Shown: positions 569 to 55,031, counted from the stretch's first letter. The stretch is DNA of 64,000 nucleotides from Candidatus Limnocylindrales bacterium (GCA_038248915.1 JBBRXB010000001.1:229097-293096), one strand, 5' to 3'. Notes: a model not told the origin generated them from the sequence alone. Made by a program: numbers and translations.

Positions 569-1438
569 TTCGTCGGATCGAGCGGCCCGGTCGCGGACCT
601 GGACCCAGGCAGCTCCGTACAGCAGCGCCTGGAACGTGAACGACAGCCAGGCCAGGGCGACGAATGCCGAGGCGAGCGAGCCCGCCAGGGCCGCCACCCC
701 GACCAGTCGCGGCACGAGGAACGTGAAGACCTGGCTCAGGATGACCACGATCACTCCCACGACCACAGCCGGCCCGAAGGCGGATCGCCAGGCCGGCGCG
801 CGTGGGGGCAAGGTTCGGTAGACGACCAGGACGACCACGATCGCGACTGCGATGAGCGCCGGGGTCGACCCGACGATCCGGTTGAGCACGCCGAACACCG
901 GCACCTCCGGCAGGTGAAGGGCATCGATCGCCGAGCCGATGGTCGCGAGCACGATCAACGCGACGATCGCGACGACGAGGATCGCAACGACCAGCAGGCC
1001 GCGGGCCGTGCGCCGGACGATGTCGCGCTCCGGCTCGATGGCGTAGATGCGGGCGAACGCGACATCGAGCGCGCCGTACAGCTGGCTGACCGTCCAGACC
1101 AGACCGACGACCCCCAGGATCGACGTGGCCGCCGCTCCCTGCGACATCGCCGTCAGCGATCCATCGATCAGGTCGGCCAGCGGCGGGAAGACCTGCACGA
1201 GCGCTTCCGCGATGGCCGTCCGGACCGATGGGTCATCGGTCAGCCGGCCGGCGACGCCGACGACCAGAAGGGTCGTCGGGATGGCCGCGAACAGGGCCGA
1301 AAACGCGAGGCCGTTGGCCAACAGGCCGCCCGCCGCGCGACCGTAGAGATCGAGGACGGCCCGAATCCGCGCGATCCGCGGCCGGTCGAGGAAGCGCGCG
1401 AGGAAGGCCAGGGCGTTCGTCTGCCAGGCGGGCGTCAG
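512..1438 (-). CDS. YihY/BrkB (ribonuclease BN-like) family membrane protein, probable CTG start
   Basis: The segment ...GGLLANGLAFSALFAAIPTTLLVVG... plus about 6 hydrophobic segments fits the YihY family. The track ORF starts at TTG 1321. However, codon position 3 is G/C in about 37 of 40 codons between 1322 and 1438, then collapses upstream. The only in-frame initiator candidate is CTG 1438-1436, which overlaps the upstream TGA as CTGA, with GAGGA 9 nt upstream. Confidence 0.8.
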   Translation of the reverse strand: MTPAWQTNALAFLARFLDRPRIARIRAVLDLYGRAAGGLLANGLAFSALFAAIPTTLLVVGVAGRLTDDPSVRTAIAEALVQVFPPLADLIDGSLTAMSQGAAATSILGVVGLVWTVSQLYGALDVAFARIYAIEPERDIVRRTARGLLVVAILVVAIVALIVLATIGSAIDALHLPEVPVFGVLNRIVGSTPALIAVAIVVVLVVYRTLPPRAPAWRSAFGPAVVVGVIVVILSQVFTFLVPRLVGVAALAGSLASAFVALAWLSFTFQALLYGAAWVQVRDRAARSDESAGLGSPASTAELGGRGQ

Positions 1439-49456: not shown

Positions 49457-50416
49457 CTAAGCGTCGGTCCGCGGAGCGTCAAACGGGGGGGCCGGACGGT
49501 AGGTCCGGATGGCCGCAAGCACCGCCTCCGGGTCGGTCGTACTGGTCACCACGAGGCCGTCGAGGAAGTCGCGGCGGCGATCGACTTCGATCTCGAAGTC
49601 GCCCGCTGGGCGGCCGATCCGGCGCGCCAGCTCCGGGGTGATGCCCCAGCCGAAGTGCTCGAAGGAGTCCTCCGCCGGGTCCCACGTCGCGAGGACCGCC
49701 GGCCCCAGCCGCTGGACATGGCCGTGACGATCGCGAGCGATCGGCCGCACGTAGTGGGCCGCCACGACGCGACGGCGATCGTCTTCGAGGCGGCGCAGGA
49801 CCAGGACGATGCCCAGGTGCGACAACTCATCGTCGGTCAGCCGGACGGGCGCCTCACGGAGAGCGTCGAACAACCCGTCGAGCGCATCGGCATGGATCGT
49901 CGCCGCGAGGCCATAGCCGATCGACACGGCCCGGACCGCGATCCTGGCCGCCATTCCCCACGTGTAGGCCGGGGTGTGGTCGGACAGCTCGTGGACGAGG
50001 AGCACCGTGGACTCAGGGCGGATCGGGTCGCCGCCGGGCGCCGGGCGAGCGACGCCTGGCCAGCCCAGGTCGGACGCCTGTGGCAGCCAGTCGAAGGTCT
50101 CCGCCTCGCCGGCTAACTCGACGACCCGCACATCGGCTGGCAGGAACGCCATGAGCGCGAACAGGAGCGTCGACTTGCCGACGCCCTGCGCAGCGGCCGC
50201 CACGACGATCGGGACGCGAGCCTCGATCAACAGCCAGAGCTGCGCCGCCAGCTCCGCGTCGAGGGTTCCGTCGCGGAGCAGCGCAACGATGGACCGGGGC
50301 TTTGGCGGGGTCGGACGAAAGGCCCAGCGGCTCCGGGCTGGCGGGATGTCGGACACGGGCGGAGCGTATGGGCCGACTTGCAGGGCGGTCAAACGGGCGC
50401 GGTTCAGCGCTAGCAT
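49457..50416 (-). CDS. Orphan P-loop NTPase resembling a degenerate VirB11/CpaF/PilT-type secretion ATPase
   Basis: The Walker A region is IVVAAAAQGVGKSTLLFALMAFLP. It is followed by VRVVELAGEAE, VLLVHELSD and GLAATIHAD, in the same order as the family blocks RIVTIEDxxEL, ILVGEIRD and TxHA. ATG is at 50416. Confidence 0.55.
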   Translation of the reverse strand: MLALNRARLTALQVGPYAPPVSDIPPARSRWAFRPTPPKPRSIVALLRDGTLDAELAAQLWLLIEARVPIVVAAAAQGVGKSTLLFALMAFLPADVRVVELAGEAETFDWLPQASDLGWPGVARPAPGGDPIRPESTVLLVHELSDHTPAYTWGMAARIAVRAVSIGYGLAATIHADALDGLFDALREAPVRLTDDELSHLGIVLVLRRLEDDRRRVVAAHYVRPIARDRHGHVQRLGPAVLATWDPAEDSFEHFGWGITPELARRIGRPAGDFEIEVDRRRDFLDGLVVTSTTDPEAVLAAIRTYRPAPPFDAPRTDA

Positions 50417-50423
50417 GGGTCGT

Positions 50424-51023
50424 ATGGCTGCTCCGGACGATGGACTGACGATCGAGCCGCTGACGCGCGACCGATTCGCCGACCTGGCCACCCTGTTCGA
50501 GGAAGGTGGAGACCCGAAGTGGTGTTGGTGCGTGTACTTCCGGTTTCGCGGTCGCGACTGGTCGAACTCAACGGCCGCGGAGAACCGGGGCGCCCTCGAT
50601 GAGTTGACGGGGCGCGACCTGGCGCCGGGACTGGTCGCCTACGAGGACGACCGGGCGGTCGGCTGGGTCAGCCTGGCGCCGCGCGAGGACTATGAACGAC
50701 TGACGTACTCGAAGGTCCTCGCCCCGGTCGATGACGCGCCGGTCTGGTCGATCGTCTGTTTCGTCGTCTCTCGACGCGCGCGCGGTCGGGGCGTCGCGGC
50801 CGCTTTGCTCGATGCCGCCGTCGAGTTCGCCCACGAACACGGCGCCACGACCCTCGAGGGCTATCCGGTCGACGCCGGCGTTGGCCGGGTCCCGGCGGCA
50901 AACGCCTTCCACGGCACGCTCAGCATGTTCGAGCGGGCCGGGTTCGAGGTCGTCGAGCGCCGGCAGTGGAACGCCACCACGCCGGTCCGCCCGATCGTCC
51001 GGCGGTCGCTCGGCACGGGTTAG
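50424..51023 (+). CDS. GNAT-family N-acetyltransferase
   Basis: The acetyl-CoA motif A is VVSRRARGRGVAAALLDAAVEFA. TAGCAT lies 7 nt upstream of the ATG. Confidence 0.8.
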   Translation: MAAPDDGLTIEPLTRDRFADLATLFEEGGDPKWCWCVYFRFRGRDWSNSTAAENRGALDELTGRDLAPGLVAYEDDRAVGWVSLAPREDYERLTYSKVLAPVDDAPVWSIVCFVVSRRARGRGVAAALLDAAVEFAHEHGATTLEGYPVDAGVGRVPAANAFHGTLSMFERAGFEVVERRQWNATTPVRPIVRRSLGTG

Positions 51024-51290
51024 CTGTAATTCGCATCGAGGTCGTTGGCAGGGCCCGGCCGGACCGTGTCGAGGCCCCATCGGACCTGCCCGTCCTTGTA
51101 CGGGTGGACCGTATCGGCCGATTCTGGCGCTCGCGGACAGGTCCGGCCCGGCGTTCCGCGATCGGACGTCGCTCTTGACGACGTCCAGCGACCCGGCGAT
51201 CGGCCTGTCCGGTCCACCGATGATCGTCCTGCCAGTATCAGGGGTCGTGACGTCCCCCGCGGTCCACCGGTCGGCCGCCGTCATCAACAT
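51020..51290 (-). pseudogene. Small ORF with an apparent +1/-1 frameshift near 51115-51125 (pseudogene, sequencing error or recoding)
   Basis: From ATG 51290 to about 51125, one frame has codon-position-3 G/C of about 87% (MLMTAADRWTAGDVTTPDTGRTIIGGPDRPIAGSLDVVKSDVRSRNAGPDLSASA). From about 51120 to the TAA at 51020, a different frame has about 88% (SADTVHPYKDGQVRWGLDTVRPGPANDLDANYS*). Neither frame alone gives a sensible gene. Confidence 0.4.
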
Positions 51291-51305
51291 GGTGCCCTCA
51301 CCCGT

Positions 51306-51438
51306 ATGCCATTCGAGAGCATCAATGCGCCGCGACCGTGGATGGGCTGCGACCAACCCATACCATTCGAGACATCAGGGCAGCCCAGCATCGTGAACCA
51401 AGTCCCGGGCGCAGCGCCGATATGCTCTCGAGTGGCAT
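51306..51438. repeat. 17-bp inverted repeat ATGCCAYTCGAGAGCAT (arms 51306-51322 and 51422-51438) with a third degenerate direct copy at 51359-51376
   Basis: The arms differ at one position. On the plus-strand transcript that position would be a G-U pair. The arms are separated by 99 nt. Confidence 0.75.
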
Positions 51439-51464
51439 GTCGCTGGGAGACCCTTGTCCCGAGG

Positions 51465-51501
51465 TGGGATGCCCGTGAGATGGGATGCCCGTGAGATGGG
51501 A
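51465..51501. repeat. Tandem 16-mer tgggatgcccgtgaga x2.3
   Basis: Perfect copies lie at 51465-51480 and 51481-51496, followed by the partial copy tggga. Confidence 0.85.
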
Positions 51502-51595
51502 CAGTCCCCGACCCAGCACGCAGAGCGCCCAGGGGCCACGCGGCGGCCGCCCCGACGCCATCCGTCGCGGGTCTACCATCGTCGTCTGACGAGGG

Positions 51596-51624
51596 TTGAC
51601 ACTCGTTTCGCCCGGCGGTAGACT
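51596..51624 (+). promoter_or_regulatory. Near-consensus sigma-70-type promoter TTGACA-17-TAGACT
   Basis: TTGACA at 51596-51601, an exact 17-nt spacer, then TAGACT at 51619-51624. The predicted transcription start is near 51631. Confidence 0.6.
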
Positions 51625-51678
51625 GCCGACCGGCTCGCATGTCGCGCGCACAGACCCTCCAGACAGGAGGCGGCTCGA

Positions 51679-51765
51679 ATGAAGATCACGACCTCCCTCC
51701 TCCACCGATGCGTTGCCCCCGACCCGGCGTTCGCACGCGGGAGTTCTGTGCCCATCTCGAGCTAG
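51679..51765 (+). CDS. 28-codon small ORF (MKITTSLLHRCVAPDPAFARGSSVPISS), candidate leader peptide or small peptide gene
   Basis: AGGAGG lies 8 nt upstream of the ATG. Codon position 3 is G/C in 23 of 28 codons, even though the surrounding region has lower GC. It sits between the consensus promoter and a U-tract terminator. Confidence 0.5.
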   Translation: MKITTSLLHRCVAPDPAFARGSSVPISS

Positions 51766-51786
51766 ACCGAAGGCGGCAAGGCCGCC

Positions 51787-51834
51787 AGCCGGACGAACCA
51801 GAGCCGTGGGCCAGATCGGGTCTCCGGCTTTTTT
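51787..51834 (+). terminator. Candidate intrinsic terminator / attenuator
   Basis: AGCCGGA...TCCGGCT forms a 7-bp outer stem, with an inner helix GAGCC/GG(t)CTC. It is followed directly by TTTTTT (51829-51834), which is rare in this GC-rich sequence. A perfect hairpin GGCGGC-AAG-GCCGCC (51772-51786) precedes it. Confidence 0.55.
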
Positions 51835-51969
51835 GATGCCCTTCCCCGCCCGCCAGGCGGTCACGGGACACCAGAGCCGCGAGGCCCACCGACCACCAGT
51901 CGGATGCGACCCGCGGCCTTTTCGTTCCCAGGCCCACCCCCTCGCGGACCCCACCATCCGGAGCCTCCA

Positions 51970-52899
51970 GTGACCACCATCCTCGATCCACAACTGAAGA
52001 ACGGCTCCCCGAGCCGACCGGATCGACCGGCCGCGACGGACCTTCCCGACCTGCCCTTCGCGGCCATCGGGCGGAACCCCCTCCGACCCGCCGGGCCGCC
52101 CGCCCTCCTCATCGAGGATGTGACCAAGCGGTTCGTCGTCAGTCGGAAGAAGCCGCCGGTCATCGCGATCTCGCACGTGACGCTCCGCCTCGAGCGCGGC
52201 GACATCCATGGGATCCTCGGTGCCAACGGCTCCGGCAAGTCGACGCTCATCCGCCTGATCTGCGGGCTGCTGACGCTCGATGAGGGTCGGGTCGAGGTCT
52301 TCGGTCACGACATCGTCCGCGACGAGATGGCGGTCAAGCGGCTGATCAACCGGGTCAGCGTCGATGCCGCGTTCTTCAAGAAGCTGAGTCCGATGGAGAA
52401 CCTGCTCTTCGCCGCACGTCTGTATGGCCTCGATGGCAAGACGGCGCGCGGCGAGGCGATCGCGATCCTGGCCCGACTCGGCATCTCGGAGAAGCGGATC
52501 GACCGCCCGATCGAGCAGATGAGCCGGGGGATGCAGCAGAAGGTCGCCATCGCACGGGCCCTGCTGACGAGCCCGACGCTGCTGCTGCTCGACGAGCCGA
52601 CCACGGGTCTCGACCCGCGATCCAAGCTCGATGTCCAGTCATTCATCGAAGAGCTCCGGGAGACCCACGACGCGACCATCGTCCTGACGACCCATGACCT
52701 GGCCGAGGCAGAACGCCTGTGCGGCCGGATCACGATCCTCAACGACGCCCGGGTCGTCGCCGAAGACACCCCGGAGGGCCTCAAGACCCTCATCAGCGAT
52801 CGCGTGGACGGACCCGCGACGCTCGAAGACGTGTTCATGACCTATACCGGCCGCTCGCTCGACGACGACGTCGAGCCGGACGACGCCGAGACCGAATGA
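51970..52899 (+). CDS. ABC transporter ATP-binding protein (ABC-2/DrrA-like exporter type)
   Basis: Motifs are Walker A (GANGSGKST), signature (MSRGMQQK) and Walker B (LLLLDEPTTGLD). GTG 51970 has GGAG 6 nt upstream and is preferred over ATG 51904. Either start leaves a Pro-rich N-terminal extension of about 50 aa. Confidence 0.85.
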   Translation: MTTILDPQLKNGSPSRPDRPAATDLPDLPFAAIGRNPLRPAGPPALLIEDVTKRFVVSRKKPPVIAISHVTLRLERGDIHGILGANGSGKSTLIRLICGLLTLDEGRVEVFGHDIVRDEMAVKRLINRVSVDAAFFKKLSPMENLLFAARLYGLDGKTARGEAIAILARLGISEKRIDRPIEQMSRGMQQKVAIARALLTSPTLLLLDEPTTGLDPRSKLDVQSFIEELRETHDATIVLTTHDLAEAERLCGRITILNDARVVAEDTPEGLKTLISDRVDGPATLEDVFMTYTGRSLDDDVEPDDAETE

Positions 52900-52914
52900 A
52901 GGGAGGTGAAAACG

Positions 52915-53106
52915 ATGTTGTTCAACCCGGAACTGCACGGGCGGATGGCCCAGGAGCGGATCGATCGCGAGCTGGCGATCGCCGAGCTCCTGCGTCGTGT
53001 CCAGCAGCCATCCCAGTCCATCCGCCGGGCGGTCGGCCACCGATTCATCCAGATCGGGGCCCGGCTCGCGGCGGAGCCATCACTCAAGTCGGCTCGGTCC
53101 CGCTAG
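52915..53106 (+). CDS. 63-aa hypothetical helical protein inserted between ABC ATPase and permease genes
   Basis: ATG 52915 has GGGAGGTG 6 nt upstream. Codon-position-3 G/C is high. The product is MLFNPELHGRMAQERIDRELAIAELLRRVQQPSQSIRRAVGHRFIQIGARLAAEPSLKSARSR. Confidence 0.6.
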   Translation: MLFNPELHGRMAQERIDRELAIAELLRRVQQPSQSIRRAVGHRFIQIGARLAAEPSLKSARSR

Positions 53107-53143
53107 AGGGCCGGGCCGACTCCCCCGCCTGGAGATCACTTCG

Positions 53144-53947
53144 ATGACCGTTGTCACCCATGAGCTGAAGGCCTCGTATGCCTTCATCGAGCGCAACTTC
53201 AACCTGACTCGCCGCTATTGGGGCTGGGAGCTCGCCTTCCTGGTCTATTCCGTCGCGGGCGCGCTGTCGATCTCGCTCATCGGTGCGTCGCAGGGCAACG
53301 AGACCCTGTTGCTGTCGTTGATGATCGGCGCGATCTTCTGGAACTACCTGTCCGTCGTCTTCTCGTGGATCGCCGAGACGATCACCGTGGAGCGCTGGGA
53401 AGGCACCCTCGAATACACCATGATGGCGCCGATCCAGCGCTGGTCGCAGCTGCTCGGGTCGGTCCTGTATGCGATGGTCTACGGCCTGATCCACACCTCG
53501 GTCATCTTCGTGGCGCTCGTCCTGTTCTTCCCGCAGCTCGACCTGTCCGGCGCGAACCCGGCGACCGTCGTCGCGTTCATGCTGCTCGGTTCGTTCAGCT
53601 TCGTCGGCATCGGGATGATCGCTGCGATCCTGCCGCTCCTCTACGTCGAACGCGGGGCACAGATGACATTCGTGCTCCAGTCGGTTCTGCTGCTGGTCAG
53701 TGGCGTGTACTACTCGGTCGACATCCTCCCGCCGTGGATGCAGATGCTGTCGAAGCTGTCGCCGGCCACCTACGTCCTCGAGGGCGTCCGCGCCGGCCTG
53801 ATCGACGGCAAGCCGCTGGGCCAGCTCACCTATCTGGTCTGGCCGCTCATCGTGATGGGCGTCGTGCTCATCCCATTCGGGCTGTGGGCCTTCGGTCGTG
53901 CGGAGCACTACGCCAAGCGCACCGGCAAGCTCAAGCGGGTCGGCTGA
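53144..53947 (+). CDS. ABC-2 type transporter permease
   Basis: ATG 53144 has GGAG upstream. The product has six TM segments and an ABC-2 membrane pattern (FIERNFNLTRRYWGWEL...). Confidence 0.85.
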   Translation: MTVVTHELKASYAFIERNFNLTRRYWGWELAFLVYSVAGALSISLIGASQGNETLLLSLMIGAIFWNYLSVVFSWIAETITVERWEGTLEYTMMAPIQRWSQLLGSVLYAMVYGLIHTSVIFVALVLFFPQLDLSGANPATVVAFMLLGSFSFVGIGMIAAILPLLYVERGAQMTFVLQSVLLLVSGVYYSVDILPPWMQMLSKLSPATYVLEGVRAGLIDGKPLGQLTYLVWPLIVMGVVLIPFGLWAFGRAEHYAKRTGKLKRVG

Positions 53948-53948
53948 C

Positions 53949-55031
53949 ATGACACTCGAGGCGCTCGGTTGGGACGCCGGCTGGGCCCAGACCTTCGCGC
54001 CATTCGTGTCCCGCGGCCTGCGTCCTGCCCGGGTCGTGGCGGTCCATCGCGAGACCTCCATCGTTCGCGATGGCGGGGGTGACCGACCGGCCGGCGTGTC
54101 CGGGGCATTCCGGCACGGGGCGCTGGCCCACGTCGACTTCCCAGCGGTGGGTGACTGGGTCGTCCTGGACGCAGATTCGGTGATCAGCGCGATCCTGCCG
54201 CGGCGAAGCCTCTTCAAGCGGATGGCCGCCGATGGCAGCCGCCGCAATGGCGGGCTCGACGACGAGCAGATCATGGCCGCCAACGTCGATGTCGCCCTGC
54301 TCGTTGCGGGCCTGGACAACGACTTCAACCTTCGGCGCATCGAACGCTACCTGGCCGTCGCCTGGTCGAGCGAGATCACGCCGGTCGTCGTCCTGAACAA
54401 GGCCGACCTCGCCGATGACGTCGATGGCCGGCTGGTGGCCGTCGATGCGATCGCGCCGGGCGTGGCCACGGTCGCGGTCTCGGCCCGGACCGGTCAGGGC
54501 CTCGACGCCCTGCGTGCGCATCTCCGGCGCGGTGCCACCGCAGCGATCCTGGGTTCCTCGGGAGTCGGCAAGTCGACCCTGGTCAACGCCCTGTTGGGCG
54601 AAGACCGCCAGGCCACCGCCGAAGTCCGCGATTCCGATTCACGCGGCCGCCACACGACCACCCATCGCGAGTTGTTCGAACTGCCGGGTGGCGCGCTCCT
54701 GGTCGACACGCCGGGCATCCGCTCGCTCGAGGTCCTGGGCGCCGACGAGGGGGTCGATGCCGCCTTCGACGACGTCGTCGACATCGCCGCGACCTGCCGG
54801 TTCAGTGACTGCCGGCACGAGAGCGAACCGGACTGCGCGATCCGGGCAGCCCTTGCCGATGGCAGCCTGACCGAGGAGCGCCTGGCCAGCCACCGGAAGC
54901 TTGAGCGCGAGCTGGCCCGCGCCGCGCGCGAGGGCGACCCGCGCGCCCGAGCCGAACATCGCCGAACCTGGACGATCATCAGCAAGTCGGTCAACGAGCA
55001 CATGGACCGGAAGTACGGAGCCGAGCGATGA
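53949..55031 (+). CDS. rsgA: Ribosome small-subunit-dependent GTPase A
   Basis: The GTPase motifs are circularly permuted: VVLNKADL (G4), GSSGVGKSTLVNAL (G1) and DTPG (G3). A C-terminal zinc cluster follows (CRFSDCRHESEPDC). Confidence 0.9.
   Translation: MTLEALGWDAGWAQTFAPFVSRGLRPARVVAVHRETSIVRDGGGDRPAGVSGAFRHGALAHVDFPAVGDWVVLDADSVISAILPRRSLFKRMAADGSRRNGGLDDEQIMAANVDVALLVAGLDNDFNLRRIERYLAVAWSSEITPVVVLNKADLADDVDGRLVAVDAIAPGVATVAVSARTGQGLDALRAHLRRGATAAILGSSGVGKSTLVNALLGEDRQATAEVRDSDSRGRHTTTHRELFELPGGALLVDTPGIRSLEVLGADEGVDAAFDDVVDIAATCRFSDCRHESEPDCAIRAALADGSLTEERLASHRKLERELARAAREGDPRARAEHRRTWTIISKSVNEHMDRKYGAER

Follow-up and report, generated by a model that had tools for sequence, protein, structure and literature searches.

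We analyzed a window of 64,000 nucleotides (nt) from a Limnocylindria-like Chloroflexota genome (Candidatus Limnocylindrales bacterium, GCA_038248915.1, JBBRXB010000001.1:229097-293096), focusing on the leader at positions 51596-51969 of this window, which precedes the genes of an ABC-2 exporter. Comparison with related sequences suggests that this leader is a ribosome-dependent (leader-peptide) transcription attenuator controlling a DrrAB-like ABC-2 exporter operon, an interpretation to which we assign a probability of roughly 75%. The leader contains a short open reading frame (ORF) with its own ribosome-binding site and a conserved frame, a predicted intrinsic terminator (T1) between this ORF and the regulated genes, and an antiterminator (X:Y) whose formation excludes that of the terminator; moreover, the upstream antiterminator strand, X, is positioned such that a ribosome at the leader stop codon would be expected to cover it. 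An earlier sequence-only reading of the window had already proposed a ribosome-mediated attenuator ahead of an exporter, and the intact leader ORF, the covarying X:Y pairing and the operon linkage found in relatives (see below) bear this proposal out.

The leader lies ahead of an operon for an ABC-2 ATPase, a 63-residue protein and a permease in 80 genomes and at least 120 metagenome contigs, that is, in about 200 uncultured sequences. The genomes came from a one-genome-per-species scan with the ATPase, which gave 80 loci (L001-L080) at 67-87% identity over the best aligned segment. Their labels are nearly all Chloroflexota or Candidatus Limnocylindria/Limnocylindrales; two contigs with other phylum labels are taken to be mis-binned since they, too, carry the leader. 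The metagenome contigs were scanned with an RNA pattern alone (X, a gap of 40-65 nt, and the invariant AGCCGTGGGCC). Among the pattern matches listed, an ATPase ortholog was present no more than 600 nt downstream in 87 of the 92 contigs with at least 700 nt of downstream sequence. The five exceptions are a chance match (L097), three decayed loci (L100, L133 and L189), all of which have lost the U-tract and one of which (L100) has also lost the leader stop codon, and an ATPase-less variant (L175). We noted that L133 carries duplicated C-terminal fragments of the permease, and that in L175 (positions 777-890, minus strand) an intact leader runs into a homolog of the 63-residue ORF, the ATPase gene being missing. 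Leader DNA could be aligned in most of the 80 loci, with the highest conservation at 51736-51842; a core of 105 nt (51739-51842) remains ~80-90% conserved at the nucleotide level even where the ATPase is at ~74% identity.

The leader ORF had been described as 28 codons with a coding-like GC content at third codon positions (GC3), and both its composition (GC3 = 0.815) and its conservation agree with translation. A GGAGG-like Shine-Dalgarno (SD) sequence, an ATG, a frame of 26-30 codons (mostly 27) and a stop codon (TAG or TGA) 36-40 nt before the 5' arm of T1 were retained in 78 of the 80 loci. The two exceptions, L008 and L019, are broken by single-base indels; in these metagenome-assembled genomes (L008:3768-3882 and L019:3738-3853) the RNA elements are intact, and the indels may be long-read assembly errors. 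Outside segment X, GC at codon positions 1, 2 and 3 is 0.64, 0.56 and 0.81, compared to 0.69, 0.43 and 0.92 in the ATPase genes and a flat profile in the 5' untranslated region. We relied on this periodicity as the coding test because codon-position entropy is uninformative for an ORF with a GC-rich, fast-evolving N-terminal half. In a third clade (clade C), seen in metagenomes, the start codon is GTG, and (M)RNLSKAPA…GRSAPTER is one example of the encoded peptides. Leader peptides follow the consensus M-x3-5-(L/F)(L/F)-R-R-(T/C)-(V/I)-A-P-x-G-x4-G-R-S-(V/A)-P-(I/T)-S-(S/R). Its conserved residues are largely encoded by RNA-paired nucleotides: G-R-S-V-P is specified by X, and the A-P codons fall within a small hairpin, P0. 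Residues of the N-terminal half differ among relatives, as do the final three, which read …PTES, …PWSR or …PTAG in the wider set. Seven codons from the end, Arg is encoded by AGA in 72 of 79 loci, a very rare codon that accounts for only ~1% of those used for Arg by the ATPase genes, and the bases of this codon are also constrained by X:Y pairing. The window itself has AGT (Ser) at this position (51742-51744).

Segment X (GAGAUCUGYGCCC) corresponds to codons -7 to -4 of the leader ORF and is complementary to GGGC-CAGAUC (Y). The sequence-only reading had invoked mutually exclusive pairings around a short ORF without saying which of them exclude one another; we find that X:Y and T1 are mutually exclusive because Y consists of the inner 5' arm and the loop of T1. 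In nearly all loci the stop codon follows 9 nt after the end of X. Compensatory variants of X:Y were found in the relatives that we call clade B (GGUG with CACC), in L115 (CGUG with CACG), in L155 (CAGUG with CACUG) and in L194 (GGUCUG with CGGACC); a U-A pair is replaced by C-G in L051 and a C-G pair by U-A in L056, and many sequences have G·U intermediates. In an alignment-free tally anchored on the invariant GCCC and GGGC, 77 of 105 cells were paired versus 63.6 ± 3.4 after shuffling, a value that none of 2000 shuffles reached. Covariation was also scored in 96 sequences below 90% identity. The structure composed of the antiterminator and the downstream hairpin P2 had 94.8% of cells paired, with two-sided changes in 3 pairs and 9 cells, and on four of five measures the observed value was reached by 0 of 500 shuffles. 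The MAFFT alignment misplaces the loop gap of clade B, which disfavours the antiterminator structure. A local GAGAU/AUCUC hairpin around X was considered as an anti-antiterminator and rejected, as clades B and C do not keep this pairing at the corresponding alignment columns.

Both hairpins that the sequence-only reading had placed downstream of the ORF, a perfect GGCGGC-AAG-GCCGCC hairpin (P2) and a longer one ending in a rare T6 (T1), are indeed present. T1, for which we predict a role as intrinsic terminator with transcription ending at its U6, had 98.4% of cells paired, and its 5' arm is invariant in the 96 sequences; T1 together with P2 had 97.3% of cells paired. Apart from the T6 of T1, the 64-kb window contains no run of T6 or A6, whichever strand is read. 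P2 has a variable loop, and in clade B its GGCGG/CCGCC stem is replaced by GGGGC/GCCCC. Secondary structure prediction is consistent with a switch between the two states: the minimum free energy (MFE) structure of the RNA before the 3' arm of T1 is transcribed included X:Y in 60 of 79 loci, and the MFE structure of the full leader contained T1 in 70 of 79. Within the ORF, the small hairpin P0 is a weak to moderate case of covariation: 69% of cells were paired versus 65% after shuffling, 2 of 2000 shuffles reached the observed value, and GCA...GGU covaries with GCG...GGC. P0 is possibly an RNA polymerase pause hairpin that synchronises ribosome and polymerase.

Between T1 and the SD sequence of the ATPase gene lies another hairpin, H2, which the earlier reading had missed. 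All 79 of the 79 loci have its outer stem, GAGCCGCG…CGCGGCUC, with a closing pair that alternates between C-G and A-U, and its U-rich tail has a mean of 4.6 T per 10 nt, in a genome of roughly 70% GC. H2 is terminator-like and probably acts as a back-up. The 5' arms of H2 and T1 are alike. When X:Y was enforced, the freed 3' arm of T1 was predicted to pair with the 5' arm of H2 (at least 7 base pairs) in 60 of 64 loci, compared to 3 of 64 when T1 was enforced. These predictions suggest a relay in which the freed 3' arm of T1 would also antiterminate H2.

On the basis of these elements, we propose the following mechanism. A dedicated promoter would start transcription near position 51631, and a ribosome would load at the GGAGG and AUG to translate the 27-28-codon leader. 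Segment X (11-13 nt, leader residues -7 to -4) could pair with Y to form the antiterminator. A ribosome that keeps pace with RNA polymerase would reach the stop codon and cover X, such that T1 would form, transcription would stop at the U6, and the exporter would be OFF. By contrast, if the ribosome is late, stalled upstream or absent, X would capture Y once Y emerges, T1 would not form, and read-through would turn the exporter ON. With the antiterminator formed, T1 would have its 3' arm free, and this arm might capture the 5' arm of H2, relaying the decision to the back-up hairpin. Since untranslated RNA should read through, the element would in effect report whether a ribosome closely trails the polymerase. 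By analogy with bmrB-bmrCD, the most plausible inducing signal would be slowed translation, for instance under ribosome-targeting antibiotics or translation stress.

Several observations weigh against this interpretation. RNAalifold found no conserved "segment 1" sequestering X beyond the small P0, and it is for this reason that untranslated RNA is predicted to read through, unlike that of the trp attenuator. None of the 74 aligned leader peptides has a run of a single amino acid, nor did we find an arrest motif in the leader peptides: RAPP and RAPG are absent, +x+ is not consistent, and the peptides have R-x-x-A-P-x-G instead. (R-A-P-P/G and +x+ are among the motifs that characterize RAPP/RAPG-type and other named arrest peptides.) T1 is almost invariant and hence provides zero two-sided covariation. 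The full-length MFE structure of the window's own leader retains X:Y, its T1 being weaker (-13.5 kcal/mol). The fold energy of the leader as a single sequence is unexceptional (z = -0.21), and the case thus rests on conservation and covariation. Lastly, clade B has no U-tract after H2, which renders a terminator role for H2 uncertain.

The promoter had been correctly picked out by the sequence-only reading (TTGACA-17-TAGACT) and is the sole sigma-70-like site in 50000-54000. Of 77 related loci, 74 have TTGAC(A/G/T)-18-TAGACT, separated by 49-61 nt from the ATG of the leader ORF downstream. The 17-nt spacer sets the window apart: it is 18 nt in all relatives with a clear promoter match except L057. 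The weakest element of the leader is the proposed SD-sequestering hairpin. The CCUCC-agaca-GGAGG inverted repeat exists in the window, but its upstream CCUCC, one possible anti-SD partner, is not kept in place among relatives. The SD of the leader ORF is predicted to be paired in most relatives, with a partner that differs between lineages, and the excess over shuffled flanks is modest (pairing 0.82 versus 0.71). The C-rich tract that had been noticed inside the ORF is also present and might serve as an SD partner: it is the predicted MFE partner in the window, and an in-ORF partner is predicted in 33 of 77 loci. The ATPase gene starts ~135 nt past the T6, as had been reported. Sequestration of its SD was rejected, as pairing did not exceed chance (0.74 versus 0.72 for shuffled flanks), and therefore no layer of translational attenuation is seen. 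Two alternative ORFs were likewise rejected. The ATG at 51639 opens a 65-codon frame whose start codon is not conserved and whose frame is variable. A 45-codon frame (51836-51973, plus strand) begins at the ATG immediately behind the U-tract of T1, and its TGA overlaps the GTG of the ATPase gene (GTGA); 12 of 80 relatives are arranged in this way, and as frame and length are not conserved overall, it was not retained as a second leader ORF.

The conserved residues of the leader peptide raise the question of whether the peptide, rather than the pace of translation, carries the signal. In a ligand-specific nascent-peptide sensor, the leader (…R-x-x-A-P-x-G…G-R-S-V/A-P…) would arrest the ribosome only with a given small molecule in the exit tunnel, as TnaC, SpeFL or Erm leaders do, and this molecule could be the exporter substrate or one class of antibiotic; this would be a special case of the attenuator and not generic sensing of translation speed. 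A15 and P16 are found in 69 and 67 of the 74 aligned peptides, respectively, with third-position variation at Pro16, while G23 and P27 are invariant; Ser at -2 is retained in two clades that differ in the codon family used for it (UCG or AGC); and a peptide of this fixed length would lie wholly within the tunnel. Nevertheless, G-R-S-V-P lies in X, where RNA pairing alone accounts for its conservation: substitutions there (Ser to Phe or Gly, Val to Ala) either keep X:Y paired or hit a bulged base. The Ala-Pro codons are likewise inside the covarying P0, and metagenome sequences differ widely from one another in the N-terminal half and in the three C-terminal residues. If the ribosome were arrested on or past X, moreover, termination would be favoured, the opposite of what is expected for an exporter induced by its substrate, and the peptides matched no known arrest motif or family. 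We therefore consider such a sensor rather unlikely. A more elaborate version, in which A-P…G-R-S-x-P represents a new family of nascent-peptide sensors arrested by a compound, possibly the exporter substrate, and coupled to a two-stage T1/H2 relay attenuator, is a still longer shot; if true, it would place a very tight switch on a class-wide and highly conserved exporter.

The sequence-only reading had also suggested that the peptide might itself be the exported or sensed product, a suggestion that gained no specific support, given that the conserved residues are largely in RNA-paired codons. If the ORF were a small-protein gene in its own right, or a leader with two functions, it would make a 27-28-residue product (a transporter partner, a substrate or a peTrpL-like regulator), T1 would merely be a leaky terminator, and the ~200-nt terminated RNA might act in trans. 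The ORF is conserved and has its own promoter, SD and terminator, the operon holds another unexplained small protein of 63 residues, and trans functions have been described for leader peptides and attenuator RNAs (PMC7968998; bioRxiv 10.1101/606483). However, a plain terminator would have no need of a covarying antiterminator that extends into the 3' end of the ORF. The peptide itself is hydrophilic, lacks any signal or membrane segment, and shows poor conservation beyond the codons constrained by RNA pairing; the neighbourhood contains no genes for modification or processing, and among the matches listed the peptide is never found away from the operon. A small-protein gene is thus improbable. 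Least credible of all is a riboswitch-like RNA, with the 105-nt core binding a metabolite or protein that chooses between X:Y and T1 and with the ORF being incidental. The strong nucleotide-level conservation of the core relative to the ATPase would fit such an RNA, as would the terminator/antiterminator expression platform. On the other hand, the ORF shows GC3 periodicity, and its SD, start codon, frame length and stop position are all kept in relatives. RNAalifold gave simple hairpins only and no multi-helix junction, the invariant positions are mostly in the X, Y and T1 stems while the P2 loop varies, and no Rfam family was found at E ≤ 10.

Several known systems are comparable to the leader. 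The sequence-only reading had drawn an analogy to antibiotic-responsive leaders such as bmrB-bmrCD, which is reasonable as to the regulatory logic but does not extend to sequence homology. In Bacillus subtilis bmrB-bmrCD, efficient translation of the leader blocks the antiterminator and leads to termination, whereas slowed translation results in read-through; bmrB has 54 codons with the terminator inside the ORF, and antibiotic induction has been shown (PMC4191407). Both systems have a short translated leader ORF before ABC exporter genes, an intrinsic terminator opposed to a less stable antiterminator, and rare leader codons (AGA in the relatives here). They differ in that no family matches relate their sequences, the 27-28 codons of the leader here stop 36-40 nt short of the terminator, the exporter belongs to the ABC-2 (DrrAB/ABCA-like) kind rather than a BmrCD-type heterodimer, and the second hairpin, H2, lies downstream. 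The trp/his/leu/thr attenuators share the promoter-proximal leader ORF, the terminator with an overlapping antiterminator, the masking of an antiterminator strand by a ribosome at the stop codon, and possibly a pause hairpin within the ORF (P0 here). Unlike the trp/his type, the 74 aligned peptides have no tandem regulatory codons; a conserved 1:2 hairpin that sequesters the antiterminator, as in the trp type, is missing; and the genes encode an exporter and not biosynthetic enzymes. Leaders of ermC, cat-86 and cmlA (translation attenuation), and those of msrD and other ABC-F genes, are typically found ahead of resistance determinants and likewise use a short leader ORF with the ribosome as sensor. 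However, erm and cat leaders free a downstream SD, while here the SD of the ATPase gene is 135 nt past T1 and control would be exerted at transcription termination; a known arrest motif is also absent. The ligand-sensing arrest peptides TnaC and SpeFL resemble the present leader in having a short, conserved, tunnel-sized peptide with fixed proline and stop positions. In those systems, a ribosome that stalls on the stop codon or close to it relieves Rho-dependent termination; in the present leader, a stop-codon ribosome would favour intrinsic termination.

Within the window, the leader is a single-copy element. Searches with a regular expression and with a covariance model (114.9 bits, against 12 bits for the runner-up) each returned one copy, and the idea of further copies or a regulon within the window was rejected accordingly. 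A cmscan of 50900-52200 against Rfam 15 (E ≤ 10) returned only a 23-bit match to Xoo2, which lies on the terminator and falls short of the gathering score of 45, in agreement with the earlier statement that no known Rfam family is recognizable. No Pfam or NCBIfam model matched the leader peptide, exact look-up of the leader peptides in a collection of 15 billion proteins found none, and our literature searches retrieved no description of the leader. The comparative data provide good support for the view that the leader is a new, unannotated case of the familiar ribosome-sensing transcription attenuators, with the H2 relay as one possibly unusual feature.

Table 1. Elements of the leader and neighbouring genes (positions in the window)
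Feature	Position	Strand	Description
GNAT acetyltransferase gene			upstream of the leader
Promoter	51596..51624	+	-35 TTGACA 51596-51601; 17-nt spacer; -10 TAGACT 51619-51624
CCUCC-agaca-GGAGG	51656..51670	+	CCTCC 51656-51660; GGAGG 51666-51670 = SD of leader ORF; ATG 51679
Leader ORF	51679..51765	+	28 codons + TAG (51763-51765); MKITTSLLHRCVAPDPAFARGSSVPISS
C-rich tract	51691..51705	+	ACCTCCCTCCTCCAC (ACCUCCCUCCUCCAC); within leader ORF, Leu codons
P0, small hairpin	51714..51729	+	over Ala-Pro-x-Gly-Ala codons; GCRCC-N4-GGYGC in relatives
X, antiterminator 5' strand	51743..51753	+	GUUCUGUGCCC in window; GAUCUGYGCCC in relatives
P2 hairpin	51772..51786	+	GGCGGC-AAG-GCCGCC; begins 7 nt after stop codon; 95% of cells paired
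T1, predicted intrinsic terminator	51802..51834	+	stem AGCCGUGGGCC / GGGUCUCCGGCU (51802-51829); U6 51829-51834
Y, antiterminator 3' strand	51808..51817	+	GGGCCAGAUC; inner part of T1 5' arm + T1 loop
H2 stem-loop	51875..51928	+	AGCCGCG...CGCGGCC 51875-51918; inner hairpin 51889-51903; U-rich tail 51919-51928
SD and ABC-2 (DrrA-like) ATPase gene	51960..52899	+	GGAG 51960-51963; GTG start 51970; 309 residues
63-residue conserved hypothetical protein	52915..53106	+	between ATPase and permease genes
ABC-2 permease (DrrB-like)	53141..53947	+	268 residues
rsgA	53898-55031		after permease; ribosome-biogenesis GTPase RsgA

Synteny extends over GNAT, the leader, the ATPase, the small ORF, the permease and rsgA and is widespread among relatives. 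We sought the function of the transporter through solved structures and family models and obtained generic DrrAB/ABCA-like ABC-2 matches only: the top matches of the ATPase among solved structures are ABCA-type nucleotide-binding domains, and the permease had no match among them. The 63-residue ORF is present in at least 54 of the 80 related loci. All of its 70 database clusters are labelled "hypothetical protein", it matched no Pfam or NCBIfam model, and its product may be an accessory subunit of the transporter. The permease reaches 95% amino acid identity across the class, compared to ~86-87% at most for the adjacent RsgA, which suggests a core function of the exporter. We also noted that ~500 nt separating the GNAT gene from the promoter of the leader (51024-51550) have no counterpart in relatives, where this gap is ~75 nt. 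This stretch has a lower GC content (~0.63), a 16-nt tandem repeat in 2.6 copies (51461-51501) and an imperfect direct repeat of ~22 nt around 51302-51381; it had no match in Rfam and may be the remnant of an insertion.

Limnocylindria are abundant Chloroflexota of soil and freshwater that are uncultured, and to our knowledge almost nothing is known about gene regulation in this class. Neither Rfam nor Pfam nor NCBIfam contains the element, whose peptide is missed by gene callers; the element could enter annotation resources. The leader represents a class-wide, sequence-defined regulatory unit with clear base-pairing rules, and it suggests that transcription-translation coupling and U-tract-dependent intrinsic termination operate in this high-GC lineage. 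It would also mark the ABC-2 exporter as one that is switched on when translation falters, and hence as a candidate for an intrinsic defence against ribosome-targeting compounds in soil.

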